Assembly: GCA_030390025.1 (NCBI GenBank)
Contig: CM059432.1
Span: 16,618,001-16,682,000 of the forward strand
Direction: 5' to 3'
DNA length: 64,000 nucleotides
Source of the DNA: Squalus acanthias
Lineage: Eukaryota
A program made the position numbers and the translations under genes. Positions 2,221 to 62,290 of this stretch are shown piece by piece. How positions within the stretch are numbered: the first letter of the stretch is position 1; the number at the start of each line of letters is the position of its first letter. Below the pieces are notes generated by a model, which saw only the letters and a program-made list of their open reading frames with translations, was not told the DNA's origin and did no database searches.

Positions 2221-3764
2221 AAGAGGGAGCTGATCCGTTAGGACGACTCCACTTAAACCGGGCTGGGACCAGTGTCCTGGCAAATCGAAGAACCAGGGTG
2301 GTAGATAGGGCTTTAAACTAATAAGGGGGAAAGAGGGTTCAGGTAAGGGAAAATCTGTGAGTCTTAAGAGAAAAGTCAAGGCTGCAGAGCAGAGTAGCGA
2401 TTTGGGTAAAATCAAGCAGATTGTGTCAAGTAGGGACAGAGAGTTTAACAATGGTAATAGGATATTAACGACTAAGGCCACATAAGGGAAAAATAATAAA
2501 AAGTTAAAAATAAAGGTGCTATATCTGAATACACGAAGCATTCGTAACAAGATAAATGAATTAATGGCACAAATAGAGATGAATGGGTTTGATCTAGTAA
2601 CCATTACTGAGATGTGGTTGCAGGGTGACCAAGGTTAGGAATTAAATATTCCAGGGTACTTGACTTTTAGAAAAGATAGGCAAAATGGAAAAGGAGGTGG
2701 GGTAGCTCTGATAATAAAGGATGAGATAAAGGCAGTAGTGAGAAAGAATCTTAGCCCAGAAAATCAGGATGTAGAATCAGTATGGTGGAGCTAAGAAATA
2801 ACAAAGGGCAGAAAACACTGGTGGGAGTAGTTATAGGCCCCCTAACAGTAATCATAGTGTTGGACAGAGTATAAAAATCAGGAAATTAGAAGAGCATGTA
2901 ACAAGGGTAATGCAATAACCATGGGAGACTTTAATCTTCATATAGACTGGGCAAACCAAATTGGCAAAAGTAGCTTGGAGGACGAGTTCATAGAATGCAT
3001 TCAGGACAGTTTTCTCGAAGAATATGTTGAGGAACCAACTGGGGAACAGGCTATTTTAGATCTAGTGTATAATGAGACAGGGTTAATTAGCAATCTTATA
3101 GTAAAGGATCCTCTGGGGAAGAGTGATCATAATATGATAGAATTTCATATTAAGTTTGAGAGTGATGTGGTTAAGTCCGAAACTAGGGTCCTAAATGTAA
3201 ACAATGCCAATTATGGAGGTATGAGGGACGAGTTGGCTGAGGTAGATTGGGAAATTAGATTAAAAGATAAGCAGTGGCAAACATTTAAAGAAATAATTCA
3301 TATTTTTCAACGAATATACATTTCCTTGAGGAATAAAACTTCCACTGGAAAAGTGGTACAATTGTGGCTAACTAGAAAAGTTAAGGATATTAGATTAAAA
3401 GAGGCTTACAAAGTTGCCAAAAATAGTAAGCCTGAGGATTGAGAGGGTTTTAAAAATCAAGAAAGGATGACCAAGAAATTGAGGGAGAGAGAGAAAATAG
3501 ATTTCGAGAGTAAACTAGCAAGAAATATAAAAACGGATTCAAGAGCTTTTACAAATATGTAAAAAGGAACAGAGTAGCGAAATTAAGCGTTGGACTCTTA
3601 GAGGCTGAGACAGGTGAAATTATAATGGGGAATAAGCAAATGGCAGAGATGTTAAACAAATATTTTGTGCCTGTCTTCACAGTAGAAGACACAAATAACA
3701 TACCGGTAACTGTGGGGAACCAAGGGTCTAATGAGAGTGAGGAACTTAAAGTAATTATTGGTTT

Positions 3765-7150: not shown

Positions 7151-9935
7151 TACACATCACTGGGGCATGTGAAGAAACTTTGAAGTTTGAACAAAAATTG
7201 CACAGATAATACAGGTTAGCACGTTAAGTTGAGGAAGAAACTGTCATGGTACTGTATCAAATGTCCTTGGTCTATTTTTTAGTTTGTGATGCCTTTTGTA
7301 CAATATGATTAATTAGAGAACCAGAATAGAAAACAAACGCAAAGCCTACAGACAGATTGCCAATAGAAAGACAAGCATTGATACTACAAGCGTCATGACA
7401 CACAAAAAGAAATTAGACAGACAGGTAGGATTCCACAACAATTTTGTTTAAAAAGTGAATGTTGAAGATTCTATTGGAAACTTGGCTTGGATAAATTACT
7501 GAACTATTGTGATGGGGCTGAATTAGCAACAGGTAATAGGATGCCCCTGAGATCACATCATTTTAAGTATGTATGCTAATGCAATTTCCTTACATGGTCA
7601 GATTCAAGACAATATTCCCTGAAACAATAATCTCATCAACACTCACTGTTCAAACAAAAATAATCAATAGAAATCGAATCATAAAAATACTTATCACTGA
7701 CCACTGGGCATGACAATCTATAACATCGTAACGGTGCATGTCTAACCTGGGTACTTAGTGACATATTATGGCAACAGCACATGTCGTGATGCATCACCCA
7801 ATGCAAGTGGGTACTAAACCGTTTCTATACAGCAAGCAGTAACATGATATAAAAAAGAATACATAAATACTCCTACAGTAAGGCTTACTTACATCTCAAC
7901 ACCTAGCCCACTTGCATCAACCTCTAACTGTGTCACTTGTGTGAACAAAATCAAATATCTCTGCAGCTCTGCTGAGGGAAAGAGCTCAGAAATATGAATG
8001 TGGACTCGAGTAATTTGAAGGAACCACTGTGTCATTGCCAGGCTACCAGCATCATTCAGATTAACTGCACATCAATTCTGGTCCTCCCAGCTATTCGCTG
8101 GGACTCACTCTCCAGACCTCAACCCCCCCTGCCTTTTGGTGCACCCCACTGTTTGAGAATCACTTTTCTATTTAATAACTGCAAGCAATATAGAAAAGTG
8201 GTGCAACTTATTTTGTTGGAATATTGCCTTGCTCACTGACAAATCCATAGCTGGAACAAATTTCAAACCTGTGCAGTCCAACTTGTTTTTGTGATCACTT
8301 TATTGCAAAGGTTAATTCTTATTCCCAAAATTTCTCCTTTGATACATATGGAACATAATTTTTTCATGCATTCAAAGCCTTTCTGCAATGGTTCTGTACC
8401 TAATAATTATACGTTGTGATAGAACATAAAGTCACGTAATCCCAGAGTTTCTTTCAAATGTTTTGGTGAATTTTAGGCACCCAATGTCAGCATCAAGCAC
8501 TTGCACGTCAGGTAAAGCATAGATAAATGCGAAGTAAAGCTTAAGTTGATCCAAAAATATGCCATAACCTCAGAAAAAAAATCCCTCATTGTACTATTCT
8601 GACAACATATCTTCCCTGCCAAATACCCCTTGACCTCAATGAGATTGCCACCTTAGCGCCAAACATGAACCAGTTTTGCACTGTGTTCTGAGCCTACTAG
8701 GAACTGGGTCAAGATTCCTCAAATTCACTTTGGTTTCTCAATTATATATTTTTTTCAAATCACATAAGGAGACCTGCATCTGACCACTTTGGGTTGGATT
8801 GAAAACCAAGTCCCTGAAGTGAAAGGACAGAGTGCAACTCACTATGGCATCCAATTGTTTAGTTTATTTCATTTTGTGGCACATCAAAAGCAACCATAAC
8901 CTGACAAAATTAAACACCAAGTCTGCCTCCAAATTCTCTTTAATTAGTCAATACTGTAATGCAAAGTTGGTTGCATTCATTTACTTTTGGTGCTGTCAGA
9001 CTTACAGCTATAGCTAATGCCATAAGCTTATGTTAGAACCTAGTCTATCCAGATTGCAAAGGGACAGCTATAAAAGTAAACCAAACATAGCTCAGTAGTG
9101 AATCAGAATTGGGGGAGATTTCATTCCTCCTCCCAGTTAAGGCTTTATCTTGATAAATATTTAAAATTAAATAAATATAATGCTAGGAGTATGCATTAGA
9201 GCTCCATTCCATGATGGTCATGATTACATAGAATGGTCAGATCTCATTTATCGAGGTCAGAAATAATCCAATAGCCAGTGTTCATTTGATTAAGGCACAA
9301 TTTCACAGGGATGGCATAGCATGCTGGAGTCATTGATGATAGTATTTGAAGGGGGGGTGGGGGGGGGCGGCGGCAGGAGAACCATGCCTGTGCTTCTCAT
9401 GCAATGAGTTCCTGATTTCAACTATGTTGTTATGGAATAATATTGAGCAAAGAGCAGGCATCTTCCTATGAGGAGGAAAAGAATGAATGGCCGCCCTAGG
9501 TTGCTCTCACATACCCCCATTAACTAACTATTGTTAGAAGGCTAACAGAAAAATCATCCCCCTGACTAGCCCCAAAAGATGGTGCAAGGGAAACCAGAGG
9601 AAAAAATAACATAATTAATGCAAAAAAAAATCCAAACAACACCACAGCATATTTTTGGTAGTTACATTGAGAGCAGTTAGTACATTTTATAGTCATTGAT
9701 TTACATGCACAGGATGAGAATTTTGATAGAAAATATGCTAGATTTTTAGTTTAAAATAAGTTTTTTAAAAAAGGAACTGCTTAAGAATAGTCTGTTGGGT
9801 GATACATGTGGACAAGTTGAACTGTACATTTTCCTAATATCATAAACTAAAACCAAAAGCAACTCCTAAAACATGAATTAATGTGGTTAGCAAGTTTGAA
9901 TTCTTTGTAATTTTAATTTTAAACATAACCATTAC

Positions 9936-9953
9936 CGTCCCCACTAATTTCAT
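9936..9953 (-). CDS. PTK2: PTK2/FAK neural microexon 'box 6' (18 nt, phase 1-1): DEISGD
   Basis: Minus strand reads ...ctctctcgctgcctggattcacag|ATGAAATTAGTGGGGACG|gtaatg. With the phase-1 G from upstream it encodes DEISGD, the known FAK box 6 peptide. Confidence 0.93.
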
Positions 9954-10032
9954 CTGTGAATCCAGGCAGCGAGAGAGAAAAAGAGAGAGAAACAAGGAGG
10001 GGAAAAAAGTGGAAAAATTGCATTATTGTCAG
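9954..10032 (-). promoter_or_regulatory. 3' splice-site region of the box 6 microexon: branch-point-like CTGAC, long CU-rich polypyrimidine tract and UGC at about -15
   Basis: Minus strand: ctgacaataatgcaatttttccacttttttcccctccttgtttctctctctttttctctctcgcTGCctggattcacag. This layout is typical of SRRM4/PTBP-regulated microexons. Confidence 0.7.
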
Positions 10033-10348
10033 AGGCAAGAAACAAAAGGCGTTGATCAACCTTAAGGAACAAGGAGGTCAGAAAATGCAAGAAAATATGA
10101 ATTACATGAGATTATTAGAACAAATGAAAAGTAACTAAATTAAGGTTTGGTTTAAAAATATATTTATAAATCGAATAAAACTCCAAGTTAATCCCTACCC
10201 CTAAATTTGGGATAAATTATCGAAGATATTAACACCGGAAATTAAACCAATTTCCACACTTGGCAGCATCTGTCAACATCAACCACTCCCTCTTCAAGTG
10301 CAGCCTGTCCAGATACAGAGCAAATCTCACTCTACTCTGCCCATCAAT

Positions 10349-11046
10349 GGCCCGTAATTTGCGGTCAGCGGTGAAGCATAGGCGTTCGTTGCTGGCCCCA
10401 AAGTAAGCTTGCCACAAAGATCTCGCGATTTCTGTGGCGAGGGGATCGACTTTTCCCGACATTCAGCTGAGAACCCCTAACGCGAGCTGCTGTGACGTCA
10501 ACAAGCTGTCTGAGCAGCCAATCACAATGCAGAATTCTCTCAGCCCAGGAACCAAGTAAGCTCCTTTTATTCTAACTCTTTAAAAAATGTTATAGAGAGC
10601 AAAAACAAAGATTGAGGCTCTCACATGGGGAAAAGTTAAACCTGAAATAAAGATTAAAAAACTTCAATTTTTTTTTTAAGTTTCTTAAAAAAATTATTTT
10701 TATTAAAATGGATAAATATGACACTCCACAAAATTAAAATTAGTTTTTCAGGGCCATAACGTTTGTTTCGCAGTCAATATGCTGTTAAAACCCCAGTTAC
10801 ACCTAATCCAGAAGGGTCTAACATTTAATATGATGTTTAACAGCGATATTACTGTGGAAAAGCCAAAGTTTTCGTCAGTTTCAATGATTTCCCTGATTGT
10901 CGGCTATGTGGGGGTGTGTGGGGGTATGGCACAGCGCAGCCAGTGTCGGAGCAGTGAATGACTGACCGCAACTTCAGGATTTCTGCGTTAGGATGCACAT
11001 GCGCTAAATCCTGAAGTTGCAGTCAGTTTCCCGCAAATTCCGGGCC
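10349..11046. mobile_element. Non-autonomous DNA transposon (MITE), PIF/Harbinger-like
   Basis: TIRs ggcccgtaatttgcgg / ccgcaaattccgggcc, flanked by AAT on both sides. Related to 52464-52936. Confidence 0.8.
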
Positions 11047-12599
11047 AATATGTTTAAAAGCAAGAAGAACCTCGCTGTGTGAATGTTTAATACTCCTGTC
11101 AACCATCTTTTGTGCTATGGATTCATGCTCACCAGGCTGACAAAACTGAAACCTATTTCACTTGGGACCCAGGAGCCAGCAGAGAGGGGGGACTTCCACC
11201 CAATTAGTTTGGACTGGATTCAGACCCAAGCTTTCAACTACCCAGGTCCCTCATGGAAGTAATCTGATGCATTTTAAAGCAGCAGGGTCTGGGCTCAAGA
11301 CTGCAGAGGGGAAAGGAAACAGAGAGGTATGTTGCCATGGGTTTCTCTTGTGCACTCTGTGGTCACCCCAACAGAGTATTGGCAAAAACTTTTGCGAGGG
11401 CCTGGGACAGGAGCAGGACAGAAACCAAACACTTAATCAGTAGTAATCATTGCTGAAACTTTACAATGTGCAGCAACATTTTGTCCATACAGCCCTTAAA
11501 CTTAAGATAATGATAAATTATTCAGACACTGTGTTGAATGTTCTCAGTAGATTCCTTCAAAAAAAAACAAATGTGCATACCAGTTGTCACAGTAGTTTGA
11601 GTGGCCAAAATGTGTTTTTTTTTAAAAAAGTGTAAGAAGATAGTTTTAATACTGAAGAGTTCCTTTTGTGCATACCTTGATTTCAAAGGAATAAGTATTG
11701 CTAAAAATACTGTAAAGCTTCAGTAAATTTGTTAAAAACATTAGAAAAAATACAGGGTAATAAATCAGTTGGCATTTTCTGACATTTTGCTCTACTTTCA
11801 ACTTAAAATGGAAAGAGACATTAAACACAGAATGTTTAACTCAGTGTTTTCAATGAAGATCATATTGCTAAATACAAGATTCTCAAATTTCCTATAGGAA
11901 GTATAAATTGAAAATATGAGAGTAGAACAATTCCTAGCTCAAAAAGCAGAATGAATGGAAGCACAACTGTAAGACATGGTATTAGTGAACAAGCAAAGTA
12001 TAGTGAGTGCACGTTGGAAGTTATACTATCAGGCCATCAACTGTAAGCAGTCTGCAAAACGTGCAAATATATGTTACTTGAAGGTGACTTAACATTCTTG
12101 CACCACATATCTCCATATTTTTATCATTCTGATGACATTAGTCATACAATTTACTTTGCTTTCTCTATCACAATAAGACCATTCTTTTTCTGTTTTAGGA
12201 AGAAATTTTCCTTAACATTTATCAGTGACTTTCTACAGTAAATTTCAGTTTTTGGAAACTAGATAAATACTAGTAAATAAATGTTTTAAACTTGGTCATC
12301 CAAGTCTACTAAGCCGTTTGATTTTAGCGTACATACAATTGTGTCCATTTATATAAATCACCTTTAAATACAAAGATCATCATTCAATTTTATTGAATGA
12401 ATAGCTCTGAGTGATCAGACAGGTTATAAAAGGTACATATTCCAAATGATAATTTGCACAAACACGATAAACAGAAGTGCTGTTTAAAGACTAGTGTGCA
12501 ATCTCAACCACAAAGCTGAGGAGTTAGACCGCAGATTGAAATTAAATTCATCAAGGCAATGCTCCATATTTTTCATAAAGTCAAACAGCAATCCAGTAC

Positions 12600-12680
12600 C
12601 CTTGGGTGTGTGAAGAGAACAGAGGATGAAAGGAAGAAAGCGCCTGGCTTTCTTAACTCTGGGCTGGCAATGATTCATTC
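12600..12680 (-). CDS. PTK2: PTK2/FAK alternative exon homologous to 'box 28' (81 nt, phase 1-1): (G)MNHCQPRVKKARRFLPFILCSLHTPK
   Basis: Strongly similar to mammalian box 28 (recalled: GVSHCQHKVKKARRFLPLVFCSL...). Correct position between the SVS exon and box 6. Acceptor ctttcctttattctttgtcatcactaaag. The donor AAGG|gtactg is weak, so the 3' end is less certain. Confidence 0.85.
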
Positions 12681-13004
12681 CTTTAGTGATGACAAAGAAT
12701 AAAGGAAAGATTGGAGATCAGGATAAAATACAAAATATTTGTAAGCAGGAAATTCAATAAACAGAGAAATCTTAAATCTTTATGAACTGACTGAAGTTTT
12801 TAAATGTCATCAAGAGCTACTTCAAAGACACTAAGCAACAAAAACACAGAATTACTTTCACAACCTTTAGCCCGAGATGTACATTTTCACTTAAACAGTT
12901 GTAGACTCACAAGGTTGCCTTTTACCTGTAAGCAACCACCCATAATTGTGCGGAAGTGCACAAAGTGTCATTTTTTGTTCACTCCTTTCCTTACAGTGTC
13001 ACTT

Positions 13005-15505
13005 CATAGAATCAAAGAATGGTTACAGCACATAGGAGGCCATTCGGCCCGTCGAGCCCATGCCGGCTCTCCACAAGAGCGCTTCAGCTAGTCCCACTCC
13101 CTCGCCCTTTCCCCATAGCCCTGCAAATGTTTTTCCTTCTAATACTTATCCAATTTCCTTTTGAAAGCTGTGATTGAGTCTGCCTCCACCACCCTTTCAG
13201 GCAGTGCGTTCCAGATCCTAACCACTCGCTGAGTAAAAAAGTTTTTCCTCATGTCGCCTTTGGTTCTTCTGCCAATCACCTTAAATCTGTGTCCTCTTGT
13301 TCTCGACCCTTCCACCAACGGAACAGTTTCTCTCTATCTACTCTGTATAGACCCATCATGATTTTGAATACCTCTATCAATCTCCTCTCAACCTTCTCTG
13401 CTCTAAGGAGAACAACCCCAGCTTCTCCAGTCTATTGTAACTGAAGTCCCTCATCCCTGGAATCATTCTCGTAAATTTTTTCTGCACCCTCTCTATGGCC
13501 TTCACATCGGGGGCGATTTTCTGCCGTTGGAGGAGGCGGGTAAATCAGATTCTATGAGGGCGGGTTCGGAACCCGCCTCCATGGGATTTTGCTGGTGCCG
13601 GTTTTGGAGGTCGGGAAACGGTCCCGCCTCCAGCTGGCCATAGCGATACTTGCGATCATTAAATGCTCGTTAAGGGCCTCCCTAAGCCTATTTTGAGAGG
13701 CCCTCGAGATCGAGGATTTCGCCGTGCTCCACGCACCTCCTAAACCATGCCAGGTAAACCTGGCGGGTTGACTCATGGGTGGCCTCCTCACAGCTGCAGG
13801 TCTAACAAGACATCATTTATTGCATCAAGGATTACTTGCAGGTGCCAGACCTTGGCTTTAAACGGTCTCTGAGCACTTTAGAAGGCCTTCCAAAGTCGGA
13901 GGTGCTGCAGCTTGAATCAATCAGCTGTGGAACCTCCTTGGAAGACCCTCTCCCCGCTTGCAATGAGCGCTTCCCCAAAGGAGGCATCTACAAGCAGCAT
14001 GGGAACCATTTGTTTTCTTTCTGCATGGACCTCAGATGAGGAGGAGGAGGATCTGGAGGAGGAGAGCGCACCGGTGTATCGACCAGCGGCAGCATGCGAG
14101 CACATGGCTGCCAGGGATGAAGTGATCCTGGCCAGATTTGCAGAGGTTGCCCAAGTTGGCACATGTCCTTGGCTCCATCCTAGGACATCATTGACAATGG
14201 ACATGACTCTCTGGCCTTCTTTCACTCAGGCCACCAACCTGACAATGCAAGTGTGGCGGAGCCCGCAATGTGGAGCTGCCTAAGGTGAAAGAACAGATGC
14301 CATAGCGCCAACATTTTGGCTTCAAATCATTTAAATGCTTTCCAACAGGGATGGCATTTCATCAATACACATAAACATTCCCCCAATCTGCCCACAGATC
14401 TGAAGGTTATATCCCTTGCCAGCTGTAGCCACAGAGGTTTCTTTGGACTCTTCCTTCCAGATGAGTGGAAGAGCACTTCCATGCTAGCTGTCATCCCCTC
14501 AAGCAACATTTGCAGCGCCTCATCAGAGCGCCTCGGGGAGGCCCTTGCCTTGGAATTGGACATATTGGTTTCTCAAAATATGTTGCAGGTGGTGCAGCAT
14601 AGGCAGAAATGCTGTGGAATGAGCCAAGGGAGCAAGAAGCCATAAAATCAGACTGGAAAAGTGCTGCCAACAGAGGCGGGTTTCAGTCCCAAAACACCAA
14701 TTGACCAAGGGCATCCCACACCTCTGAAATCAAGTGGCCAATCATGGGAAAATCTCAATTTTTTGAAAACTATCAGTGGAGGCGAGTTTCAAACCCACCC
14801 AAACCAAAACCCGCCTCCATCTCGCCTCCAGTGGGAAAATTGCCCCCATCATTCCTAAAGTGCGGTGCCCAGAACTGGAAACAATACTTCAGTTGATGTC
14901 GGACCAGTGTTTTATAAAGGCTCATCATAACTTCCTTGCTTTTGTACTCTATGCCTCTATTTATGAAGCCCAGGATCCCGTATACTTTTTTAACCACTAT
15001 CTCAACCTGCCCTGCCACCTTCAACGATTTGTGCACATACAACCCCAGGTCTCTCTGTTCATACACCCCCTTTAGAATTGTACCCTTTAGTTTATATTGC
15101 CTCTTCTCGTTCTTCCTTCCAAAATGTATCACTTCGCACTTTTCTGCATTAAATTTCATCTGCCATGTGTCCGCCCATTCCACCAGCCTGTCTATGTCCT
15201 CTTGACGTCTATCACTATCTTCCTCACTGTTCACTATACTTCCAAGTTTTGTGTCATCTGCAAATTTTGAAATTGTGCCCTGTACACCCAAGTCCAAGTC
15301 ATTAATATATATCAAGAAAAGCAGTGGTCCAAGTACCAACCCCTGGGGAACACCACTGTTTGGAAAAACAACCGTTCACCACTACTCTCTGTTTCCTGTC
15401 ACTTAGCCAATTTCGTATCTATGCTGCCACTGTCCCTTTTATTCCATTGGTTTCAACTTTGCTGGCAAGCCTACTATGTGGCACTTTATCAAACGCCTTT
15501 TGGAA
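13005..15505 (-). mobile_element. CR1 family A RT/3' fragment split by a Harbinger insertion at 13509-14847
   Basis: LGPLLFLIYINDLD...KFADD ORF at 14848-15339, with the 3' end at 13005-13508. Confidence 0.9.
13509..14847. mobile_element. Degenerate, internally deleted PIF/Harbinger DNA transposon with a Myb/SANT-like ORF remnant
   Basis: TIRs GGGGGCGATTTTC / GAAAATTGCCCCC and 3-bp TSD ATC. Minus ORF 14327-14563 resembles a Myb-like DNA-binding domain. Plus-strand acidic tail ...AARDEVILARF resembles a transposase C-terminus. Confidence 0.8.
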
Positions 15506-18500
15506 TTGCCTACTCCTGTTCATATATTAGACAAAAGTGCATTTATCTTTAATTGTCGTGGTTGACTCCCAGCCTCTTGCCCCATTAAAAAAAAATCTTC
15601 AAGGACATTATCCTTTAAAATATACTACACACACATTTGGAAATACTGAGAATTACAAATGGTCGAAATCCAAGTCAACATAGGTTTAATTAACAAAAGT
15701 TGTGAAATACTGCAAATTATCAAAATATCTGTAAAAAATTTGTACCCAGAAACAGGATTTTCATATTTTATTCTCTTCATATTCACTCATCACAAGTTTG
15801 CAACGGAATAAAAGTTTACGTTGCATACTTTCACACACACATTTAACTGTGATGGAATACTTTGTTAATTCGAAGTGCTTCATATGGTTATTGCTCAATT
15901 TGCAGTAATACACAAGAGGCTCTGTAACATATTATACAGAAAATGATTGCACAATAAAGAAGGTAAAATGTGGAATATGGGTGAAAGTGTAGAGGGAGCG
16001 AATACAATAGGTTTCAGACGATGGGAATACTTTTTGTTCAACGTCTAATTTATAAAAATGTATATTATTTATAAAAACATATTTATTGATGTTTAATAAA
16101 CAAGTCAGATGCCTTAACCAAAGGAGGCTATTATTTAAACTCTTCTTTTCTCCCGGGCACTTCTGTGCATCATGGTGAATGGTGGAAGCCAAAGGCTTTC
16201 TAGAACGTCTCCCATTTACTGGAAGCTAGGACTCTGGACTGATCTGCGAGCAGTCCAACGCTGGGAAAATATGCTGCATCTTGTAAAGGTGTCATGCAGT
16301 AATTTTGTTTAAAAAGATTTAAATAGACACTTGGGATTCTTTGAACAAAAGGTATCTCCAAGACTTTCTTTCCTCTTTAAGCAGAATCAACTAATACATA
16401 TTATTTACTAGATTACTCTGGAATGTCCAGGGAATTTAGAGTAAAACAATCAATTTGTTTTATTCTAAATATATATTTGCAGTTACTACCTTTTTAAAAA
16501 CTTGATTTAATATTTTTACACATTGTTATTCTCTCCTTAAGATTCACAGGCTTTCACGATGGCTTTTGAAGGGGCATTACGGGTAAGTAACTGAACAGTG
16601 ATGTACTGCATTCTGATGAAGAAATGAAAAAGCAGGTTAAAATTCCACGAAATTACTGCTTGATTAATTAATGATGACTATTCGAATGAAGAAATAAACT
16701 CAATTAGTCAAATGCAAACTTTACCAATTGGCTTTTAAGTACAATCTTATTAGGTATGTTCTGTACTGAAAGTCACCCAAGGTACATCAAGAAACACAGA
16801 AGGTAAACATCACTGAAAGGAGCAGAACCAGGCTGATTTTCATCTCCTCCCAGCTCAGTGGTGCTGAGACCACTGTACTGTTAACCTGGCTGATTGGATA
16901 CCAGTAATCCTTGCTAACAGAATATGAATTTATAGTGTCATCAGCATGCCTCTGAAGTCTGGGAAATTATTTTAATGCAACTGAAATCTTAGAGAGAAAT
17001 GAAAGTTTATCTCAGCAAAAATTGGTAATTAATTTCTGAACGTTTACAATTTTGTAGAATATTACAATGCTGTGTAAGTGTAATTTAATTGGGAAAGTCA
17101 AAAAGCATACTTTGTTGGGGATAATGAAGCTTAGGAGAATCCTTTCAGTATAAAGTGTGCCTGCCCAAACAAGAAAACTATTTCGAAATGTTCTGATTTG
17201 GTGGCTGTTATAATAACTGATAACACCGATTTCCTTCTAGCCGCCATCATTTCACGTCTCCCCCTTGCACTACGGAATGATACTGATGATGCAAGTTACA
17301 GAAAACAGGATATTGGCACTTTTGCGTATTTGATGAGGCCAAATACAAACAGTTAAGCTGCTTTAACTCACAGCAAGTGAACATACAGAGCAACAATTAT
17401 GATTAAGCTCACTTAATTCTACCTGTAGTATTTTGTCTTTGCGTAATAATACAAAATAATGAACACACTACTCTTCCCCAGTACCAGTGGTTCAGTTGCA
17501 TTCCAAACAAAATATCTTATAATTACCCTCACACTTCCTAACCTTCTGAGTCTGTGAAAGACTGCCCCAACAGCTTTCGTCAGTTTGTATTTCTGTCCCT
17601 ATCTTCACAACGAGAGGAGAGGATCTATGCCACACAACCCCTGCCAGGCACCCAGGACCAGAGACTGCCCAACATGATGGATGTGAAGTGTTTATCAATT
17701 ACTGAGATGGGCTAACAAATTGCTTTTTGTCTTTGGCCGTTGGGGAAACAATTTAGTTGCATGTTAATCACCTTTCGACCCAGTGTTTCTAAAAAAAAAT
17801 GTAAGTGCGGAATACACTTTGCTTTAAAAACCCATCATTTAAGTTGTAATTCATTTGGGACAGGGTCAGGGAAGACTGGTGGGTAGAAGTCCCGTCCTAC
17901 TGCATTTCCCAGTGGCAGCGCAAAGCTCCAGGATTTTCAGATCCAGAACACTTTTTGAATGATTGCAGAAACATCACTCAGAATTTACTGAACAGAAAAA
18001 AACCAAATCATCCAATTTTCTACCCTGATCCTGAAAATACAGATTCATGCTGGGGTACAAGAGCATGGATGTGCCAGAAATCTAGCAACTCCCTTGAGTG
18101 GCCATTCTTCGTGTGAGAGCCCTGGCAGTGAGTGTTGCCAGACAATTTAACCACTGGGGATGGAGGCAGCACATCTCAGTCAGGCCCTACCCTCACTAAT
18201 TATCTGCACTCTCCAGGAACAGGTATTGGATTGAAACCATGGCCCCGATATTTACGAGGAGGTAGGGAGCCGAAAACGACTGAAGAACCCGGCAATCCCA
18301 GGGACGTGGAGGGCATGCCGAGCTTGACAACAGGGCCTCGTTTGTAAATTCCACCTCCCATATGTTGGCCAGCCTGGCCGGTAGGCGGGAAAACACACTC
18401 GCAACAGGAGGCTTTAGTCGGGGGGCTGGGAGCTGGGTGAGGCCAAAGCCTTCCTTTAGGGGCCGGGGGTGGGGGAGAGCATTCATGCTCCTCTTAGCCC

Positions 18501-22373: not shown

Positions 22374-22426
22374 CTGAGACGGAGACGGTCCGAGTCCTCA
22401 ATCCCTGCTTTTCGCTGTTTGACAAC
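22374..22426 (-). CDS. PTK2: PTK2/FAK 53-nt coding exon (phase 2-1): (K)LSNSEKQGLRTRTVSVS
   Basis: Minus strand reads cattcatttttcag|GTTGTCAAACAGCGAAAAGCAGGGATTGAGGACTCGGACCGTCTCCGTCTCAG|gtagga. Matches FAK LANSEKQGMRTHAVSVS. Confidence 0.95.
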
Positions 22427-23014
22427 CTGAAAAATGAATGCGAGAGATGATGAACGTTATACATTTTCTGTAATGTCTACTATGAATTCATTCCTTCCAC
22501 CCAATGGTTGCCTACAATAATTAGCAGGGTCGTACCATTCCCTTTCTGGCACGGGGAGATTGCTATGAATAGGAGCTACCATCTGAAAGTTTTGGAGGGT
22601 GGATCAAGAGAGAATATATCAAGCGTATCACAGCAAACACAGAAATTAAACATAATTAAGTTAAAGCTGAACACATTTGTGTCAGGTATGTTGTAAACTG
22701 AATTTCTGATCTGCAGGCAAGTGTTACATCTGAATGCAAAACTGTGACCCAATCATGTATCTTCTAAATGCAAGGGGAAAAATCTACAGAAAATTACTGA
22801 CTGGGCATCATTAGCTTGCACTGTGACCAGGCAAAAAGGTGACCCTGCAATATAGATAGCCAAATAGGAAGCATAATTCAGTCTCCAACATTTCTCGTGC
22901 TGAATAAAAAGTGACTGGTTGGTGCACGCATACATTGAGAGGGGAGACAAAAAAAAACCCAGCGACATGACAAGTACAATCATCGTAATAAGCCGTCCAG
23001 GTCCCACTCTGAAA

Positions 23015-27453: not shown

Positions 27454-28675
27454 GGACCACTCGGCTCCAGACCTCATTACAGCCTTGGTCCAAACATGGA
27501 CAAAGGAGCTGAATTCCAGAGGTGAGGTGAGAGTGACTGCCCTTGACGTCAAGGCTGCATTTGAACGAGTGTAGCATCAAGGAGCCCTAGTAAAACTGAA
27601 GTCAATGGGAATCGGGGGAGAAAAGTCTCCACTGGCTGGAGTCATACCTAGCACAAAAGAAGATGGTTGTGGTGATTGAAGGTCAATCATCACAGCCCCA
27701 GGACATCGCTGCAGGAGTTCCTCAGGGCAGTATCCGAGGCCCAACCATCTTCAGCTGCTTCATCAATGACCTTTCCTCCATCATAAGGTCAAAAATAGGG
27801 ACGTTCGCTGATGACTGCATAGTGTTCAGTGCTATTCACAACTCCTCAGATAATGAAGCAGTCCATGCCCGCATGCAACAAGACCTGGACGACATTCAGG
27901 CTTGGGCTGATAAATGGCAGGTAACATTCGTGCCTCACAAGAGCCAGGCAATGACTATCTCCAACAAGCGAGAGTCTAACCACCGCCCCTTGACATTCAA
28001 CGGCATTACCATCGCCGAATCCCTTGACCAAAAACTTAACTGGACCAGCCACATAAATACTGTGGCAACAAGAGCAGGTCAGAGGCTCGGTATTCTGCAG
28101 CGAGTGTCTCACCTCCTGACTCCCCAAAGCCTTTCCACCATCTACAAGGCACAAGTAAGGAGTGTGATGGAATACTCTCCACTTGCCTGGATGAGTGCAG
28201 CTCCAACAACACTCAAGAAGCTCGACGCCATCCAGGACAAAGCAGCCCGCTTGATTGGCACCCCAGCCACCACCTTAAACATTCACTCCCTCCACCACCG
28301 GCGCACCGTGGCTGCAGTGTGTACCATCGACAAGATGCACTGCAGCAACTCACCAAGGCTCCTTCGGCAGCACCTCCCAAACCCACGACGTCTATCACCT
28401 TGAAGGACAAGGACAGCAGGCGCATGGGAACACCACCACCTCCAAGTTCCCCTCCAAGTCACATCATCCTGACTCGGAAGTATATCGCCGATTCTTCATC
28501 GCCGCTGGGTCAAAATCCTGGACCTCCCTCCCTAATAGCACTGTGGGAGTACCTTCACCGCACAGGACTGCAGCCGTTCAAGAAGGCGGCTCACCATCAC
28601 CTTGTCAAGGGCAATTAGGGATGGACAATAAATGCTGGCCTTGCCAGCGACGCCCACATCCCATGAATGAATTTT
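27454..28675 (+). mobile_element. CR1-clade LINE family B 3' half with a 246-aa RT ORF remnant
   Basis: AGVPQGS..GPTIFSCFINDL...FADD...MEYSPLAW. Tail cccatgaatgaat. Confidence 0.92.
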
Positions 28676-29852: not shown

Positions 29853-30732
29853 TAGTGGGGTTCCGCAGGGCTCATTACTAGGTCCCTTGCTTTTGTGGTA
29901 TATATCAATGATCTAGACTGAATATAGTGGGCATGATTAAGAAGTTTGCAGATGATACTACAATAAGCTGTGCGGCTGATACTGAAGAAGGAAGCTGTAG
30001 ACTGCAGGAAGATATCAATAAATTGGTCAGGTGGGCAGAACAGTGGCAAATTGAATTCAATCCGGAGAAGTGTGAGGTAATGCATTTGGGGAGGGCTAAC
30101 AAGGCAAGGAATACACATTAAATGAGAAGTGTAGAGAAACAAAGGGAACTTGGAGTGCATGTCCACAGATCCCTGAAGGTAGCAGGCCAGGTAGATAAGG
30201 TGGTTAAGAAGGCATATGGAATGCTTGCCTTTATTAGCCGTGGCATAGAATACAAGAGCAGGGGGGGGGTTATGCTTCAACTGTATAAAACACTAGTTAG
30301 GCCTCAGCTAGACTACTGTGTGCAGTTCTGGTCACCACATTACAGGAAAGATGTGATTGCACTAGAGAGGGTACAGAGGAGATTTACAAGGATGTTGCCA
30401 GGAGTAGAGAATCTTAGCTATGAGGAAAGACTGGATAGGCTGGGTCTGTTTTCCTTGGAACAGAGGAGGCTGGGGGGAGACCTTATTGAGGTGCATAAAA
30501 TTATGAAGGGCATAGATAGAGTGGATAGAAAGGACCTATTTCCCTTAGCAGAGGGGTCAAAAACCAGGGGGCACAGATTTAAAGTAATTGGTGGAAGGTT
30601 TAGAGGGGATTTGAGGGGAAATTTCTTCACCCAGAGGGTTGTGGGGGTCTGGAACTCACTGCCTGAAAGGGTGGTAGAGGCAGGAACCCTAACCACATTT
30701 AAAAAGTACTTGGATGTGCACTTGGGATGCGT
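29853..30732 (+). mobile_element. CR1 family A 3' fragment; its 3' UTR resumes at about 34543-34665
   Basis: KKFADD, LDYCVQFWSPHYRKD, FFTQRVVGVWNSLP. Comparison with 45841-45990 shows the split point. Confidence 0.88.
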
Positions 30733-33700
30733 TTAATGAGTTGGTCACACCGCAGGTAAAGGCTGCACAGGCAGGAAGGGAATGGGTGACCGCCAGGCAG
30801 AGTAGTAGGCGCAGGCAGGTAGTGCAGGGGTCCCCTGTGGCCATCCCCCTCTCAAACAGATATACCACTTTGGATATTGTTGAGGGAGATGGCTTATCGG
30901 GGGAAGGCAGCAGCGGCCAACTTCCTGGCACCATGGGTGGTTCTGCTGCACAGGACGGAAGGAAAAAGAGCGGGAGAGCGAGAGTGATAGGGGATTCTAT
31001 TGTAAGGGGAATAGATAGGCGTTTCTGCGGCCGCAAACGAGACTCCAGGATGGTATGTTGCCTCCCTGGTGCAAGGGTCAAGGATGTCTCGGAGTGGCTG
31101 CAGGGCATTCTGGAGGGGGAGGGTGAACAGCCAGTTGTCGTGGTGCATATAGGTACCAACGATATAGGTAAAAAACGGGATGAGGTCCTAAAAGCTGAAT
31201 ATAGGGAGTTAGGAGGTAAATTAAAAATTAGGACCTCAAAGGTAGTAATCCCAGGATTGCTACCAGTGCCACGTGCTAGTCAGAGTAGAAATAGAAGGAT
31301 GTTTCAGATGAATACGTGGCTAGAGGAATGGTGCAAGGGGGAGGGATTCAAATTCCTGGGACATTGGAACCGGTTCTGGGGTAGGTGGGACCAGTACAAA
31401 CTGGACGGTTTGCACCTGGGCAGGACCGGGACCGATGTCCTAGGGGGAGTGTTTGCTTGTGCTTTTGGGGAGGGTTTAAACTAAAATGGCAGGGGGTTGG
31501 GAACCTGTGCAGGGAGACAGAGGAAAGGGAAGTAAGGATAGAAGCAAAAGACAGGAAGGAGAAAAGCAAAAGTGGCAGTCAGAGAAATCAAGGGTGTAAA
31601 TCAAACATGGCCACAGTAAATAATAATTCTAAAAGGACTAAGAGTGTTAAAAAAACAAGCCTGAAGGCTTTGTGTCTTAATGCGAGGAGCATTCGTAATA
31701 AGGTGGATGAATTAGCTGCGCAAATAGATGTAAACAGATATGATATAATTGGGATTACGGAGACATGGCTCCAGGGTGACCAAGGCTGGGAATTCAACAT
31801 CCAGGGGTATTCAATATTCAGGAAGGACAGGCAAAAATGAAAAGGAGGTGGGGTAGCATTGCTGGTTAAAGAGGAGATTAACACAATAGTAAGGAAGGAT
31901 ATTAGCTCTGATGCTGTGGAATCTGTATGGGTAGAGCTGAGAAATACCTAGGGGCAGAAAACGTTAGTGGGAGTTGTATACAGACCCCCAAAAAGTAATG
32001 CTGAGGTTGGGGATGGCATTAAACGGGAAATTAGAGACGCATGCAATAAGGGCACAGCAGTTATCATGGGTGACTTTAATCTACATATAGATTGGGCTAA
32101 CCAAATTAGTAAAAATACTGTGGAGGAGGAATTCCTAGAGTGTATACGGGATGGTTTCCTGGACCAATATCGAGGAATCAACTAGAGATCAGGCCATCTT
32201 AGACTGGGTATTATGTAATGAAAAAGGATTAATTAGCAATCTTGTTGTGCGAGGCCCCTTGGGGAGGAGCGATCATAATATGATAGAATTCTTCATTAAG
32301 ATGGAGAGTGAAGTATCTGACTCAGAGACTAGGGTCCTAAATTTAAATAAAGGGAACTATGATGGTATGAGGCACGAGTTGGCTAGGATGCATTGGGGAA
32401 CGTTACTTAAAGGGTTGACGGTGGATAGGCAATGGCAAACATTTAAAGATCGCATGGATGAACTACAGAATTTGTTCATCCCTGTTTGGCATAAAAATAA
32501 AACAAAAAAGGTGACTCAACCGTGGCTAACAAGGGAAATTAGGGATAGCATAAGATCCAAGGAGAGGACATATAAATTGGCCAGAAAAAGCAGCAAACCT
32601 GAGGATTGGGAGCAGTTTAGGATTCAGCAAAGGAGGACAAAAGGATTAATTAAGAGGGGGAAAATAGAATATGAGAGTAAGCTTTCAGGGAACATAAAAA
32701 CTGACTGTAAAAGCTTCTATAGATATATGAAGAGAAAAAGATTGGTGAAATCAAGCGTAGGTCCCTTGCAGTCAGAATCAGGGGAATTTATAATGGGGAA
32801 CAAAGAAATGGCTGACGAATTAAATACGTACTTTGGTTCTGTCTTCACAAAGGAGGACACAAATAACCTCCCAGAGATGTCGGGGAACATAGGGTCTAAT
32901 GAGAGGGTGGAACTGAATGAAATCAGTATTTGTAGGGAAATGGTGTTAGGGAAATTGACAGGATTGAAGGCCGATAAATCCCCAGAGCCTGATAATCTAC
33001 ATCCTAGGGTACTTAAGGAAGTGGCCCTAGAAATATTAGATGCATTGCTGGTCATCTTCCAAAATTCGATAGACTCTGGAACAGTACCCATGGATTGGAG
33101 GGTAGCTAATGTAACCCCACTATTTAAAAAAGGTGGTAGAGAGAAAATGGGGAATTACAGACCGGTAAGCCTGACATCGGTAGTGGGGAAAATGCTAGAG
33201 TCCATTATAAAAGATGTAATAGCAGAGCACTTGGAAAACAGTGACAGGATCGGACAAAGTCAATATAGATTTACAAAAGGTAAATCATGCTTGACTAATC
33301 TACTGGAATTTTTTGAGGATGTAACTGGTAGAATAGATAAGGGAGAACCAGTGGATGTGGTGTATTTGGACTTTCAGAAGGCTTTCGATAAGGTCCCGCA
33401 TAAGAGATTCGCGTGCAAAGTTAAAGCACATGGGATTGGGGGTAGGGTACTGACTTGGATAGAGAACTGGTTGGCAGACAGGAAGCAAAGAGTTGGAATA
33501 AACGGGTCTTTTTCCGAGTGGCAGGCAGTGACTAGTGGGGTACCGCAAGGATCGGTGCTAGGACCCCAGCTATTCACAATATATATTAATGATCTAGACG
33601 AGGGAACTAGATGTAATATCTCCAAGTTTGCAGACGACACAAAGCTGGGTGGGCGTGTCTGCTGTGAGGAGGATGCAGAGAAACTCCAGTATGATTTGGA

Positions 33701-34542
33701 CAGGTTGGGTGATTGGGCAGATGCAGTATAATGTGGATAAATGCGAGATTATCCACTTTGGTGGCAAAAACAGGAAGGCAGATTATCTGAACGGCAATAG
33801 ATTGGGAAAAGGGGAAGTGCAACGAGACCTAGGTGTCCTTGTGCACCAGTCGCTGATGTAAGCATGCAGGTGCAGCAGGCGGTTAAGAAGGCAAATGGTA
33901 TGTTGGCCTTCATAGCGAGAGGATTCGAGTACAGGAGCAAGGATGTCTTGCTGCAGTTGTACAGGGCCTTGGTGAGACCACACCTTGAGTATTGGGTGCA
34001 GTTTTGGTCGCCTTATCTGAGGAAGGATGTTCTTGCCATGGAGGGAGTGCAGCGAAGATTCACCAGACTGATACCTGGGATGGCAGGAATGACGTATGAA
34101 GAGAGATTGGGTCGATTAGGCTTATATTCGCTAGAGTTTAGAAGAATGAGAGGGGATCTCATTGAAACTTATAAAATTCTAACAGGACTAGACAGACTAG
34201 ATGCAGGAAGGATGTTTCCGATGGCGGGGGAGTCCAGAACCAGGGGTCACAGTCTAAGGATAAGGGGTAAGCCATTTAGGACTGAGATGAGGAGGAATTT
34301 CTTCACCCAGAGAGAGTGGTGAACCTGTGGAATTCTCTACCACAGAAGGCAGTTGAGGCCAATTCATTAAATATATTCAAGAAGGAGATAGATATATTTC
34401 TTAAGGCTAAAGGGATCAAGGGATATGGGGAGAAAGCAGGGACAGGGTACTGAATTTGGATGATCAGCCATGATCTCATTAAATGGCGGAACAGGCTCGA
34501 GGGGCCGAATGGCCTACTCCTGCTCCTATCTTCTATGTTTCT
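30733..34542 (+). mobile_element. Nearly full-length CR1 LINE: SGNH/GDSL esterase-type ORF1 plus APE-RT ORF2 with a few stops and frameshifts
   Basis: ORF1 blocks GDSIVRG, HIGTND, DGLHL. ORF2 LNARSIRNK, GITETWL, GDFN, SDH and a 526-aa RT segment with YRPVSLTS and PQGSVLGP...FADD. Ends in a ttctatgtttct tail. Confidence 0.95.
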
Positions 34543-46163: not shown

Positions 46164-46194
46164 TTGGGTAAGGAAGGCAAGGCTCGTTCTCCTT
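46164..46194 (-). CDS. PTK2: PTK2/FAK 31-nt coding exon (phase 1-2): (E)GERALPSLP(K), proline-rich Src-SH3-binding linker motif
   Basis: Minus strand reads ttttctttcttgtttccacag|AAGGAGAACGAGCCTTGCCTTCCTTACCCAA|gtaagt. Matches FAK EGERALPSIPK and the phases fit both neighbours. Absent from the ORF track. Confidence 0.95.
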
Positions 46195-46749: not shown

Positions 46750-49090
46750 TTTAAATTCGTTCATGGGAAGTGGGCGTCGCTGGCAAGGCCAGCATTTATT
46801 GCCCATCCCTAATTGCCCTTGAGAAGGTGGTGGGGAGCTGCCTTCTTGAACCGCTGCAGTCCATTTGGTAAGGTACTCCCACAGTGCTGATAGGGAGGGA
46901 GTTCCAGGATTTTGACCGAACGACGAAGGAACGGCGATATACTTCCAAGTCAGGATGGTGTGTGACTTGGAGGGGAACTTGGAGGTGGTGGTGTTCCCAT
47001 GCGCCTGCTGCCCTTGTCCTTCTAGGTGGTAGAGGTCACGGGTTTGGGAGATGCTGCCGAAGAAGCCCCGGCGAGTTGCTGCAGTGCATCTTGTAGATGA
47101 TTCACACTGCAGCCACGGTACGCCGGTGGTGGAGGGAGTGAATGTTTAAGGTGGTGGATGAGGTGCCAATCAAGTGGGCTGCTTTGTCCTGGATGGTGTC
47201 GATCTTCTTCAGGGTTGTTGGAGCTGTACTCATCCAGGCAAGTGAGAGTATTCCATCACACTCCTCACTTGTGCCTTGTAGATGGTGGAAAAGCTTTGGG
47301 GAGTTAGGAGGCGAGACACTCGCCGCAGAATACCCAGCCTCTGACCTGCTCTTGTTGCCACAGTATTTATGTGGCTGGTCCAGTTAAGTTTCTGGTCAAT
47401 GGTGACCCCCAGGATATTGATGGTGGGGGATTCGGCGATGGTAATGCCATTGCATGTCAAGGGACGCTCGCATTTTGGAGATAGTCATTGCCTGGCACTT
47501 ATGTTGTGCGAATGTTACCTGCCATTTATCAGCCTAAGCCTGAATGTCGTCCAGATCTTGTTGCATGCGGGCATGGACTGCTTCATTATCAGAGGAGTTG
47601 TGAATGGCACTGAACACTGTGCAGTCATCAGCAAGCATCCCGAGGAACTCCTGCAGCGATATCCTGGGGCCGTGATAATTGACCTTCAACCACTTTCCTT
47701 TGTGCTCGGTATGACTCCAGCCAGTGGAGAGTTCCCCTTCCCCCCGCCCCGATTTCCATTGACTTCAGTTTTACTAGGGCTCCTTGATGCCACACTAGGT
47801 CAAATGCTGCCTTGATGTCAAGGGCAATCACTCTCACCTCACCTCTGGAATTCAGCTCTTTTGTCCATGTTTGGACCAAGGCTGTAATGAGGTCGGGAGC
47901 CGAGTGGTCCTGGCAGAACCCAGACTGGGCCTCAGTGAGCAAGTTATTGGTGAGTAAGTGCTGCTTGACAGCACTGTTGATGACACCTTCCATCACTTTG
48001 CTGATGATTGAGAGTAGACTGATGGGGCGGTAATTGGCCGGATTGGATTTGTCCTGCATTTTGTGGACAGGACATACCTGGTCAGTTTTCCACGTTGTTG
48101 GATAGATGCCAGTGTTATAGCTGTACTGGAACAGCTTGGCTCGAGGCGCAGCTAGTTCTGGAGCACAAGTCTTCAGCACGACAGCCGGGATGTTGTCGGG
48201 GCCCACAGCCTTTGCTGTATCCAGTGCGCTCAGCCGTTTCTTGATATTACATGGAGTGAATCAAATTGGCTGAAGACTGGCTTCTGTGATGGTGGGGACC
48301 TCAGGAGGAGGCGGAGATGGATAATGCACTTGGCACTCCTGGCTGAAGATGGTTGCAAATGCTTCAGCTTTGTCTTTTGCACTCACGTGCTGGGCTCCAC
48401 CATCATTGAGGATGGGGATATTCATGGAGCCTCCCCCTCCCGTTTGTTGTTTAATGGTCCACCACCATTCACGACTGGATGTGGCAGGACTGCAGAGCTT
48501 TGGTCTGATCCCTTGATTGTTGGATCACTTAAGCTCTGTCTTTAGCACGCTGCTTCCACTGTTTAGCATGCATGTAGTCCTGTGTTGCAGCTGCCCCAGG
48601 TTGGCACCGAATTTTTAGGTACGCCTGGTGCTGCTCCTGGCATGCTCTTCTACTCTCCTCATTGAACCAGAGTTGGTCCCCTGGCTTGATGGTAATGGGA
48701 GAGTGAGGGATATGCCATGAGGTTAGATTGTGGTGGAATACAATTCTGCTGCTGCTGATGGCCCACAGTGCCTCATGGATGCCCAGTTTTGACTCTGTGT
48801 GTATGATTATGTCAGGCTATTGCTTGACTAGTCTGTGGGACAGCTCTCCCAATTTTTTCACAAGTCCCCAGATGTTGGAGAGGAGGACTTTGCAGCGTCG
48901 ACTGGGCTGGGTGTGCTGTTGTCGGGTCCGTAGCCAGAGCCGAGGTCGATGCCGGGTGGTCCGTCCAGTTTAATTCTTATTGTTTTTCGTAGCTTTTTGT
49001 TTTTAACAACTGAGTGGCTTGCTAAGCCATTTCAGAGGGCAGTTAAGAGTCAACCAGATTGCTGTGGGTCTGGAGTCACATGTAGGCCAG
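46750..49090 (-). mobile_element. CR1-clade family B with internal deletions; a further 3' fragment lies at about 49198-49360
   Basis: GPDNIPAVVLKTCAPELA...NYRPISLLSIISKVME...LDIKAAFD. Confidence 0.92.
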
Positions 49091-53453: not shown

Positions 53454-53571
53454 CTTTCTGGGACCTAATAATGAATGACTGTATGACTCCATTCACTAGG
53501 CGACAATAACCATCTATCAAGTCTGCCATGTTCTCTGCAATGTTCAGCGATGGAGTTGTTATAGTCAAAGG
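53454..53571 (-). CDS. PTK2: PTK2/FAK coding exon (118 nt, phase 0-1), end of FERM domain: PLTITTPSLNIAENMADLIDGYCRLVNGVIQSFIIRSQK
   Basis: Contains the FAK signature AENMADLIDGYCRLVNG. Acceptor ttattttcag, donor AAG|gtaaga. In frame with the previous exon. Confidence 0.97.
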
Positions 53572-55939: not shown

Positions 55940-56047
55940 CTCCGATGCTCCAGCTATTTTTAACTGCAAAGTTCCTTTCCTGTCTTTATCATCACTGTTT
56001 GAATACTGAATGGTCTGTACCTGGTTGAAATTAGCCAGGTGAGTTGG
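55940..56047 (-). CDS. PTK2: PTK2/FAK coding exon (108 nt, phase 0-0), FERM F3 lobe: PTHLANFNQVQTIQYSNSDDKDRKGTLQLKIAGASE
   Basis: Translation closely matches vertebrate FAK (human, recalled: PTHLADFTQVQTIQYSNSEDKDRKGMLQLKIAGAPE). Minus-strand acceptor ttcttgttttacag and donor GAG|gtaagt. Confidence 0.97.
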
Positions 56048-59560: not shown

Positions 59561-62290
59561 TTAATTATTATTTTTTTTTAAATACCCAAGTATAGAAATC
59601 AGAGGTAGCCAACAAAACATTTTTTAAAGATAAAACTGAAATTTTTTTTTTTTTTTTTGCATGAACCAAGCAAGTTATTTGTTTTGAAGTAAACCTTTCT
59701 GCCTCCCTTAGATAACTAAAGGATTAGGTTCTTAGCCGTAGTCTTGCATGCTATCAGAGAATGGAAGACCACAACAATGAAATAGAATGCTTGATTTTTT
59801 TTAAAATTCGTTTATGGGATGTGGGCGTCGCTGGCAAGGCCAGCATTTATTGCCTATCCCTAATTGCCCTTGACAAGGTGGTGGTGAGCCGCTTTCTTGA
59901 ACCTCTGCAGTCCGTGTGGCGAAGGTACTCCCACAGTGCTCTTAGGGAGGGAGTTCCAGGATTTTGATCCAGCGACGATGAAGGATCGGCGATATATTTC
60001 CAAGTCAAGATGGTGTGTGACTTGGAGGGGAACTTGGAGGTGGTGGTATTCCCATGCGCCTGCTGCCCTTGTCCTTCTAGGTGAAAGAGGTCGCAGGTTT
60101 GGGAGGTGCTGTTGAAGAAGCCTTGGCAAGTTGCTGCAGTGCATCTTTTAAGATGGTACACACTGCAGCCACGGTACATGGTGGTGGAGGGAGTGAATGT
60201 TTAAGGTGGTGGATGGGGTGCCAATCAAGCAGGCTGCTTTGTCCTGGATGGTGTCGAGCTTCGTGAGTGTTGTTGGAGCTGCACTCATCCAGGCAAGTGA
60301 AGAGTATTCCATCACACTCCTTACTTGTGCCTTGTAGATGGTGGAAAGGCTTTGGGGAGTCAGGAGGTGAGACACTGGCTGCAGAATACCTAGCCTCTGA
60401 CCTGCTCTTGCTTCCATAGTATTTATGTGGCTGGTCCAGTTAAGTTTCTGGTCAATGGTGACCCCCAGGATGTTGATGGTGGGGGATTCGCTGATGGTAA
60501 TGCAGTTGATTGTCAAGGGGCGGTAGTTAGACTCTCGCTTCTTGGAGATAGTCATTGCCTGGCACTTGTGTGGCGTGAATGTTACCTGCTACTTATCAGC
60601 CCAAACCTGAATGTCATCCAGGTCTTGTTGCATGCGGGCACGGACTGCTTCATTATCTGAGCTGTGAATGGCGCTGAACACTGTGCAGTCATCAGCGAAC
60701 ATCCCCATTTCTGACCTTATGTCGGAGGGAAGGTCATTGATGAAGCAGCTGAAGATGGTTGGGCCTAGGACACTGCCCTGAGGAACGCCTGCAGCGATGA
60801 TCTGGGGCTGTGATGATTGACCTTCAACCACCACAACCATCTTCCTTTGTGCTTGGTATGACTCCAGTGGAGTTTTCTCCCCGATTCCCATTGACTTCAG
60901 TTTTACTAGGTCTCCTCGATGCCACACCCAGTGAAATGCTGCCTTGATGTCAAGGGTAGTCATTTTCACCTCACCTCTAGAATTCAGCTCCTTTGTCCAT
61001 GTTTGGACCAAGGCTGTAATGAGGACAGGAGCCGAGTGGTCTTGGCAGAACCCAAACTGGGCATCAGTGAGCAGGTTATTGGTGAGTAAGTGCCACTTGA
61101 TAGCACTGTTGATGACACCTTCCATCACTTTGCTGATGATTGAGAGTAGACTGATGGGGCAGTAATTGGCCGGATTGGATTTGTCCTGCTTTTTGTGGAC
61201 AGGACATACCCGCTCAGTTTTCCACATTGTTGGATAGATGCCAGTGTTGTAGCTGTACTGGAACAGCTTGGCCAGAGGCGCGGCTAGTTCTGGAGCACAA
61301 GTCTGCAGCACGACAGCCGGGATGTTGTCGGGGCCCATAGCCTTTGCTGTATCCAGTGCGCTCAGCCGTTCATCGAAACCACGTGGAGTGAATTGAATTG
61401 GTTGAAGACTGGCTTCTGTGCTGTGGGGACCTCAGGAGTAGGCCGATATGGATCATCCATTCGGCACTTCTGGCTGAATATGGTTGCAAACGCTTCAGCC
61501 TTGTCTTATGCACTCACGTGCTGGGCTCCACCATCATTGAGGATGGGGATATTCATGGAGCCTCCTCCTCCCGTTAGTTGTTTAATGGTCCACCACCATT
61601 CACGAGTGGAAGTGGCAGGACTGCAGTGCTTTGATCTGATCCGTTGATTGTGGGATCGCTTAGCCCTGTCTATTTCATGCTGCCTCCACTTTTTAGCATG
61701 CATGTTGTCCTGTGTTGCAGCTTCCCCAGGTTGGCACCTCATTTTTAGGTATGCCTGGTGCTGCTCCAGGCATGCTCTTCTACACTCCTTATTGAACCAG
61801 GGTTGGTCCCCTGGCTTGATGGTAATGGTAGAGTAAGGGATATGCCGGGCCATGAGGTTACAGATTGGGGTGGAATACAATTCTGCTGCTGATGGCCCAC
61901 AGCGCCTCATGGATGCCCAGTTTTGAGCTGCTAGATCTGTTCTGAATCTATCCCATTTAGCAGCGTGGAAGTGCCACACAACATGATGGAGAGTATCCTC
62001 AGTGTGAAGACGGGACTTCGTCTCCACCATGACTGTGCGGTGGTCACTGCTACCAATACTGTCATGGACAGATGCATCTGCGACAGGTAGATTGGCGAGG
62101 ACGAGGTCAAGTAGGTTTTTCCCTCATGTTGGTTCTCTCATCACCTGTCGCAGGCCCAAGACTGGCAGCTATGTCCTTCAGGACTCGGCCAGCTGTGGTG
62201 CTACCGAGCCACTTTTGGTGATGGACTTTGAAGTCCCCCACCCAGAGTACATTTTGTGCTCTATCGACTCTCAGTGCTTCTTCCAAGTGT

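Follow-up and report, generated by a model that had tools for sequence, protein, structure and literature searches.

The FAK gene in the window

The window, a stretch of 64,000 nucleotides from Squalus acanthias, contains exons 9–14 of PTK2, the gene for FAK, on its minus strand (Table 1). With AG and GT ends, these six exons splice to 136 stop-free codons. Four of them were mapped with a skate FAK protein as tblastn query and the microexon box 6 was recognized by direct reading. The same tblastn search did not find the Tyr397 exon within the 64-kb window, so intron 14 is probably longer than 9.9 kb.

Table 1 PTK2 exons, splice sites of exon 13 and retroelement fragments in the window.
Feature	Position	Strand	Description	Basis
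PTK2 exon 9	55940..56047	-	108 nt, FERM domain	tblastn, E 4e-16
PTK2 exon 10	53454..53571	-	118 nt, FERM domain end	tblastn, E 1e-18
PTK2 exon 11	46164..46194	-	31 nt, start of FERM-kinase linker	tblastn
PTK2 exon 12	22374..22426	-	53 nt, constitutive, ends SVS	tblastn with skate FAK; PDB FAK chains, low score
Exon 13 acceptor	12681..12720	-	Pyrimidine-rich tract and AAG	Read from sequence
PTK2/FAK exon 13 (box 28)	12600..12680	-	81 nt, phase 1-1, 27 codons, optional cassette	
Exon 13 donor	12594..12599	-	GTACTG, weak	Rough donor score 2.2
PTK2 exon 14 (box 6)	9936..9953	-	18-nt microexon	Direct reading; hexapeptide same as in most relatives
Retroelement fragment, PTK2 intron	32139..33728	+		Domain match
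Retroelement fragment, PTK2 intron	27600..28400	+		Domain match
Retroelement fragment, PTK2 intron	2858..3439	+		Domain match
Retroelement fragment, PTK2 intron	30693..31481	+		Domain match
Retroelement fragment, PTK2 intron	60592..61431	-		Domain match
Retroelement fragment, PTK2 intron	47631..48260	-		Domain match
Retroelement fragment, PTK2 intron	14776..15375	-		Domain match

Exon 13 lies between exon 12 and box 6; the minus-strand coordinates confirm the order SVS exon, box 28, box 6 that a sequence-only reading of the window had given. Including its split first codon, the exon translates to GMNHCQPRVKKARRFLPFILCSLHTPK. The reading frame is kept whether the 81 nt are included or skipped, and no stop arises either way. 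Compared with human box 28, the window scored 98 in the best frame and 31–38 in the remaining five, and shuffled controls (n = 60) had a mean of 40, an SD of 3.8 and a maximum of 56. The order of the exons, their stop-free joining and this score bear out the earlier identification of the segment as FAK box 28. Its peptide is identical to human box 28 at 16 of 27 positions, to mouse at 17 and to the models of Amblyraja and Mobula at 25; it matched no PDB chain and no Pfam family, and Rfam gave zero matches in positions 9000–23000.

Over 103 constitutive FAK residues, in a comparison set whose cartilaginous fishes were batoids and carpet sharks, the window matched six batoids at 101 residues, Amblyraja at 100, four carpet sharks at 97–98, and human, mouse and coelacanth at 87–89. 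These matches place the host among the cartilaginous fishes. The exon in the window is, with near certainty, the ortholog of FAK exon 13: a frame-keeping optional cassette with weak splice sites. Its inclusion adds 27 residues to the FERM-kinase linker, directly before box 6 and the Tyr397 exon.

Phylogenetic depth of the exon

The accessible text of Corsi 2006 (PMC1570463) reports exon 13 from dog and chicken and from one gene each of zebrafish and fugu, and assigns its origin to the common vertebrate ancestor. That paper nowhere uses the word "shark", and our literature search returned no report of the exon in cartilaginous fishes. Public gene models do contain it. Our first protein search returned a FAK isoform of the skate Amblyraja radiata at 93% identity, and in six elasmobranch RefSeq models a 27-residue box 28 precedes box 6, with 21–25 of the 27 residues identical to the window. 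Two are batoids, A. radiata (XP_032875790.1, P0002) and Mobula hypostoma (XP_062914758.1, P0009), and four are carpet sharks, Stegostoma tigrinum (XP_059502192.1, P0139), Hemiscyllium ocellatum (P0017), Chiloscyllium punctatum (P0018) and C. plagiosum (P0021). These isoforms are predicted gene models; RefSeq isoform models are usually supported by RNA-seq. From the skate and ray models the window differs by two substitutions in the tail, whereas the carpet sharks have Trp in place of the first Cys (4/4) and Met in place of the first Lys (3/4).

Compared with mammalian box 28 (human P0154, mouse P0160), the exon in the window likewise sits between exon 12 and box 6, keeps the frame and has the same core of basic, hydrophobic and Cys residues. 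It differs in having 27 rather than 28 residues, with a tail of five instead of six residues past the second Cys-Ser; in a Phe after the Pro, where Leu is found only in mammals; and in an intron 13 without UGCAUG. The CSL that had been described as shared with mammals occurs in mouse, in several further rodents and in horse, whereas human reads CSH.

The elasmobranch and mammalian orthologs, together with the FAK context in the window, support the view, put forward in the sequence-only reading, that the exon is older than the divergence of cartilaginous from bony fishes. Neither a cyclostome nor a chimaera box 28 was present among the best 120 of 565 hits or among the 15 of 109 cluster members listed. 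A search of 1.84 billion representatives with box 28 returned three weak hits. One (P0190) is the translation of genomic sequence that reads through a mammal-like box 28, and the other two, a Cys/His-rich duplicated protein and a tandem-repeat protein, were judged to be chance matches. Three frogs (P0095, P0104, P0115) have an annotated 28-residue box 28, which settles a point that Corsi 2006 left open for frogs.

The exon as such is already known: it was published as vertebrate-wide in 2006, and its 27-residue form already stands in the six elasmobranch models. The conservation is not news: with its depth published for bony vertebrates, teleosts among them, and the elasmobranch form in public gene models, the finding is an ordinary one. 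Figure 4 and the supplements of Corsi 2006 may already show both the length variation and the conserved core in teleosts. The evolutionary gain is thus small, one more cartilaginous fish for a published vertebrate-wide exon. A useful by-product is a narrowed, testable core and an acylated-anchor hypothesis for the function of box 28. The isoform that contains it is under developmental regulation in brain and also occurs in tumours.

What is conserved in box 28

To describe conservation within the insert we parsed 73 rows, one per species with human twice, of which 69 were kept; Rhincodon was dropped as a fragment, and Crocodylus, Calidris and Anas were dropped after failing to parse. With the window this gave 70 rows, 37 from mammals (human twice) and 33 from non-mammals. 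The rows were retrieved by their likeness to regions containing box 28, they are not independent and mammals dominate them, so the counts below describe a biased sample of related sequences.

The length of the insert varies. All six elasmobranchs and three bats have 27 residues, a single deer mouse has 26 and most tetrapods have 28; four ray-finned fishes outside the teleosts have 29, and coelacanth has 31. Teleost boundaries did not parse cleanly. The 27-codon version proposed for the window is the one that all six elasmobranch inserts share. The figure of 28 is a mammalian label and not a fixed feature, and the difference between 27 and 28 residues means little when lengths elsewhere range from 26 to 31. 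The residue missing from the window falls in the variable tail behind the second Cys.

The N-terminal part is variable as well. The first Cys is present in 42 of 70 rows and in only 11 of the 33 outside mammals, so the description of a Cys-flanked peptide is poorly supported, and we rejected it as the conserved unit. Exact KKARR occurs in 41 of 70 rows (8/33 outside mammals). In teleosts the N-terminal part of box 28 is replaced by Pro/Thr-rich sequence, and ray-finned fishes and coelacanth (18/70 rows) have an extra Leu that shifts the register by one residue.

The Pro and the second Cys are common to all 70 rows, as is the pattern F-(L)-L-P-hydrophobic x3-C-[SA]. The mean hydropathy of this core is at least 2.46 across the rows, and the eight residues before it carry a net charge of +2 to +7, which is +4 or +5 in 65 of 70 rows. 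In the Amblyraja model P0002 the second Cys is Cys 443 and the Tyr397 equivalent is Tyr 460, 17 residues apart with box 6 included. These results narrow the targets for mutagenesis to the second Cys, the Pro, the hydrophobic run and the basic patch; the first Cys, the first Lys and the exact length are probably unimportant. An AlphaFold2 prediction from a 51-sequence alignment had a mean pLDDT of 42 and did not recover the kinase fold.

Splice sites and transcripts

On a rough donor matrix the sites of exon 12 and box 6 scored 8.9 and 5.2, and that of exon 13 scored 2.2. Scanning for in-phase GT from +60 to +140 revealed, besides the donor at +81, a second one at +60 with a very poor score of -7.9. 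The donor at +81 had been described as the only nearby in-phase GT; it is not alone, but no GT donor gives 28 codons, and a 28-codon form was rejected. In the read-through P0190, a translation from one Logan contig that is 26/28 identical to mouse, the exon is preceded by Glu-Gly and followed by Gly-Thr-Ala, implying an AAG acceptor and a GTACNG donor like those of the window. This single protein translation suggests that the weak splice sites of box 28 are themselves old.

The accessible text of Corsi 2006 (PMC1570463) describes UGCAUG in intron 13 of amniotes. There is none on the minus strand of intron 13 in the window (2646 nt), where about 0.8 would be expected from the 20 copies on the entire minus strand of the 64 kb; a zero is within chance of this background, showing that the motif is not enriched but falling short of a significant loss. 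Downstream of box 6 the motif occurs twice, at distances of 227 and 533 nt (9709 and 9403). Upstream of box 6 (9954–10053, minus strand) an extended run of pyrimidines contains UCUC repeats, and a UGC occupies -15 to -13, an arrangement that resembles the signature of SRRM4-dependent neural microexons. UGC is absent from the last 40 bases upstream of box 28. Past the weak donor the frame stays open for about 38 codons (12599–12389, minus strand), and an AATAAA lies at 12394. A truncated, FERM-only transcript ending there is conceivable; the hexamer is probably a chance occurrence, since intron 13 has three of them in 2646 nt.

The predicted isoforms of Amblyraja FAK include two with the insert (P0002, P0007) and three without it (P0005, P0012, P0016), and the insert is present in three of the 15 listed members of the 109-member cluster of the Amblyraja isoform. 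In four sequencing runs, over positions 9800–13000, the joint 12600->9953 was absent among the 15 joints listed, with 144 more in tables swamped by a high-copy repeat. A contig from run X1, taken as RNA by guess only and with a depth of 3.1, covers 12603–12764 with zero differences and runs unspliced through the acceptor; its source may be either DNA or pre-mRNA. A contig from run X4 spans 11001–13000 with 56 other letters and 33 gaps. The very high-copy repeat lies inside intron 13 at about 10335–11080, with contig depths in the thousands in all four runs.

Possible functions of the insert

The accessible parts of two papers, from 2006 (PMC1570463) and 2019 (PMC6563491), call the function of box 28 unknown, and those of four others (PMC11298715, PMC12420805, PMC10376711, PMC6507456) give no function specific to it. 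Our tentative proposal for box 28 is a membrane anchor introduced by splicing, perhaps with S-acylation of the kind seen in the STREX insert of the BK channel; we would give this reading somewhat less than an even chance. The N-terminal third and the tail would be flexible spacers, free to drift, and constraint would act on the basic patch and on the F-(L)-L-P-hydrophobic x3-Cys stretch behind it. Basic residues would bind acidic membrane lipids, and the hydrophobic run would insert into the bilayer and so position the invariant Cys for reversible S-acylation. The isoform would thereby gain an additional, switchable membrane tether on its autophosphorylation linker. A membrane-binding role had already been suggested for KKARR. 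Of the functions suggested for that stretch this one is the better fit, although what is constrained is the basic patch together with the hydrophobic run and the second Cys rather than KKARR itself.

The comparison with STREX, an insert of KCNMA1, is one of functional analogy, and we claim no homology. Both inserts are alternatively spliced and cytosolic, and both have a polybasic stretch upstream of a Cys; a conserved Cys adjoining basic and hydrophobic residues is present in 70 of 70 rows. STREX differs in its 59 residues, its demonstrated di-Cys acylation and its PKA switch, whereas box 28 has a single invariant Cys whose acylation is only predicted. According to the accessible text of PMC4035745, the upstream polybasic stretch of STREX is needed for S-acylation of the Cys and for membrane association, and no canonical S-acylation consensus exists; the resemblance to STREX is therefore not a test of acylation in box 28. 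One supplementary file of a site-level synaptic S-palmitoyl dataset (PMC8230572) has no FAK1 entry and no box-28 peptide; its search database may have lacked the exon-13 isoform. FAK also has a reported S-palmitoylation route to membranes (PMC10795333), so a second anchor may be unneeded. In the literature we searched, which did not extend to subscription papers such as the original rat work, there was no proposal of an S-acylated anchor for box 28. The fuller claim, that a splice-controlled S-acylated anchor on the Tyr397 linker has been kept with deliberately weak splice sites since the jawed-vertebrate ancestor, is doubtful as a whole. If true, it would give a function to the one linker insert whose role is open, and would move attention away from the published calmodulin idea.

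That idea holds that box 28 is a Ca2+/calmodulin-binding segment, with a reversed consensus, that couples neuronal FAK isoforms to calcium. The motif is described in the accessible text of PMC6563491 and PMC12358039, the latter of which also reports inclusion of exon 13 in short-projecting neurons. Both papers offer a motif match or a hypothesis and not measured binding. The segment is indeed basic and hydrophobic, and its best 11-residue helical moment is about 0.7 in both window and human, but an invariant Pro sits mid-segment, the added Leu shifts the register in 18 of 70 rows, the moment falls to 0.49 in Polyodon, and teleosts have Pro/Thr-rich sequence in place of the N-terminal part. Calmodulin binding also leaves the invariant Cys unexplained. 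It could coexist with a role at the membrane, and we consider it unlikely while taking it seriously.

We think it distinctly improbable that the insert acts in cis, either as a longer linker or by docking of its core on the FERM or kinase domain, with altered autoinhibition and access to Tyr397. The insert does adjoin the Tyr397 exon, and a tolerance for lengths of 26–31 residues would suit a spacer; a pure spacer, however, needs no invariant F-L-P-x-x-x-C core. Boxes 6 and 7 relieve FERM inhibition and so increase autophosphorylation (PMC1570463, accessible text), but that text credits this effect to boxes 6 and 7.

Docking of another enzyme on the core has still less to recommend it. The pattern of a MAP-kinase D-motif is a basic residue followed by hydrophobic-x-hydrophobic. 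Something like it occurs in 70 of 70 rows, and something like a cyclin RxL motif in 61. Such patterns are degenerate, any basic-plus-hydrophobic stretch matches them, and the invariant Cys again goes unexplained.

KKARR had also been read as a possible nuclear localization signal, which would send the isoform to the nucleus. The monopartite pattern, K-[KR]-x-[KR], occurs in 49 of 70 rows, the window among them. The other 21, among them three carpet sharks, 11 of the 13 teleosts and the three frogs, lack it but keep the hydrophobic-Cys core, and for this we rejected the signal as the conserved unit and hold the explanation to be very improbable.

Least credible of all is a decaying relic no longer spliced in this species: the weak donor and AAG acceptor would suit it, but frame, length and both splice dinucleotides are intact, the peptide is nearly identical to those of skate and ray, matching weak sites are implied in P0190, and the lack of UGCAUG in intron 13 is within chance of the background.

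Other elements in the window

Besides the exons, the introns of PTK2 in the window contain seven retroelement fragments (Table 1). Five are reverse-transcriptase fragments, one is an endonuclease fragment and one is a GDSL esterase-like frame, which fits a type of LINE ORF1.
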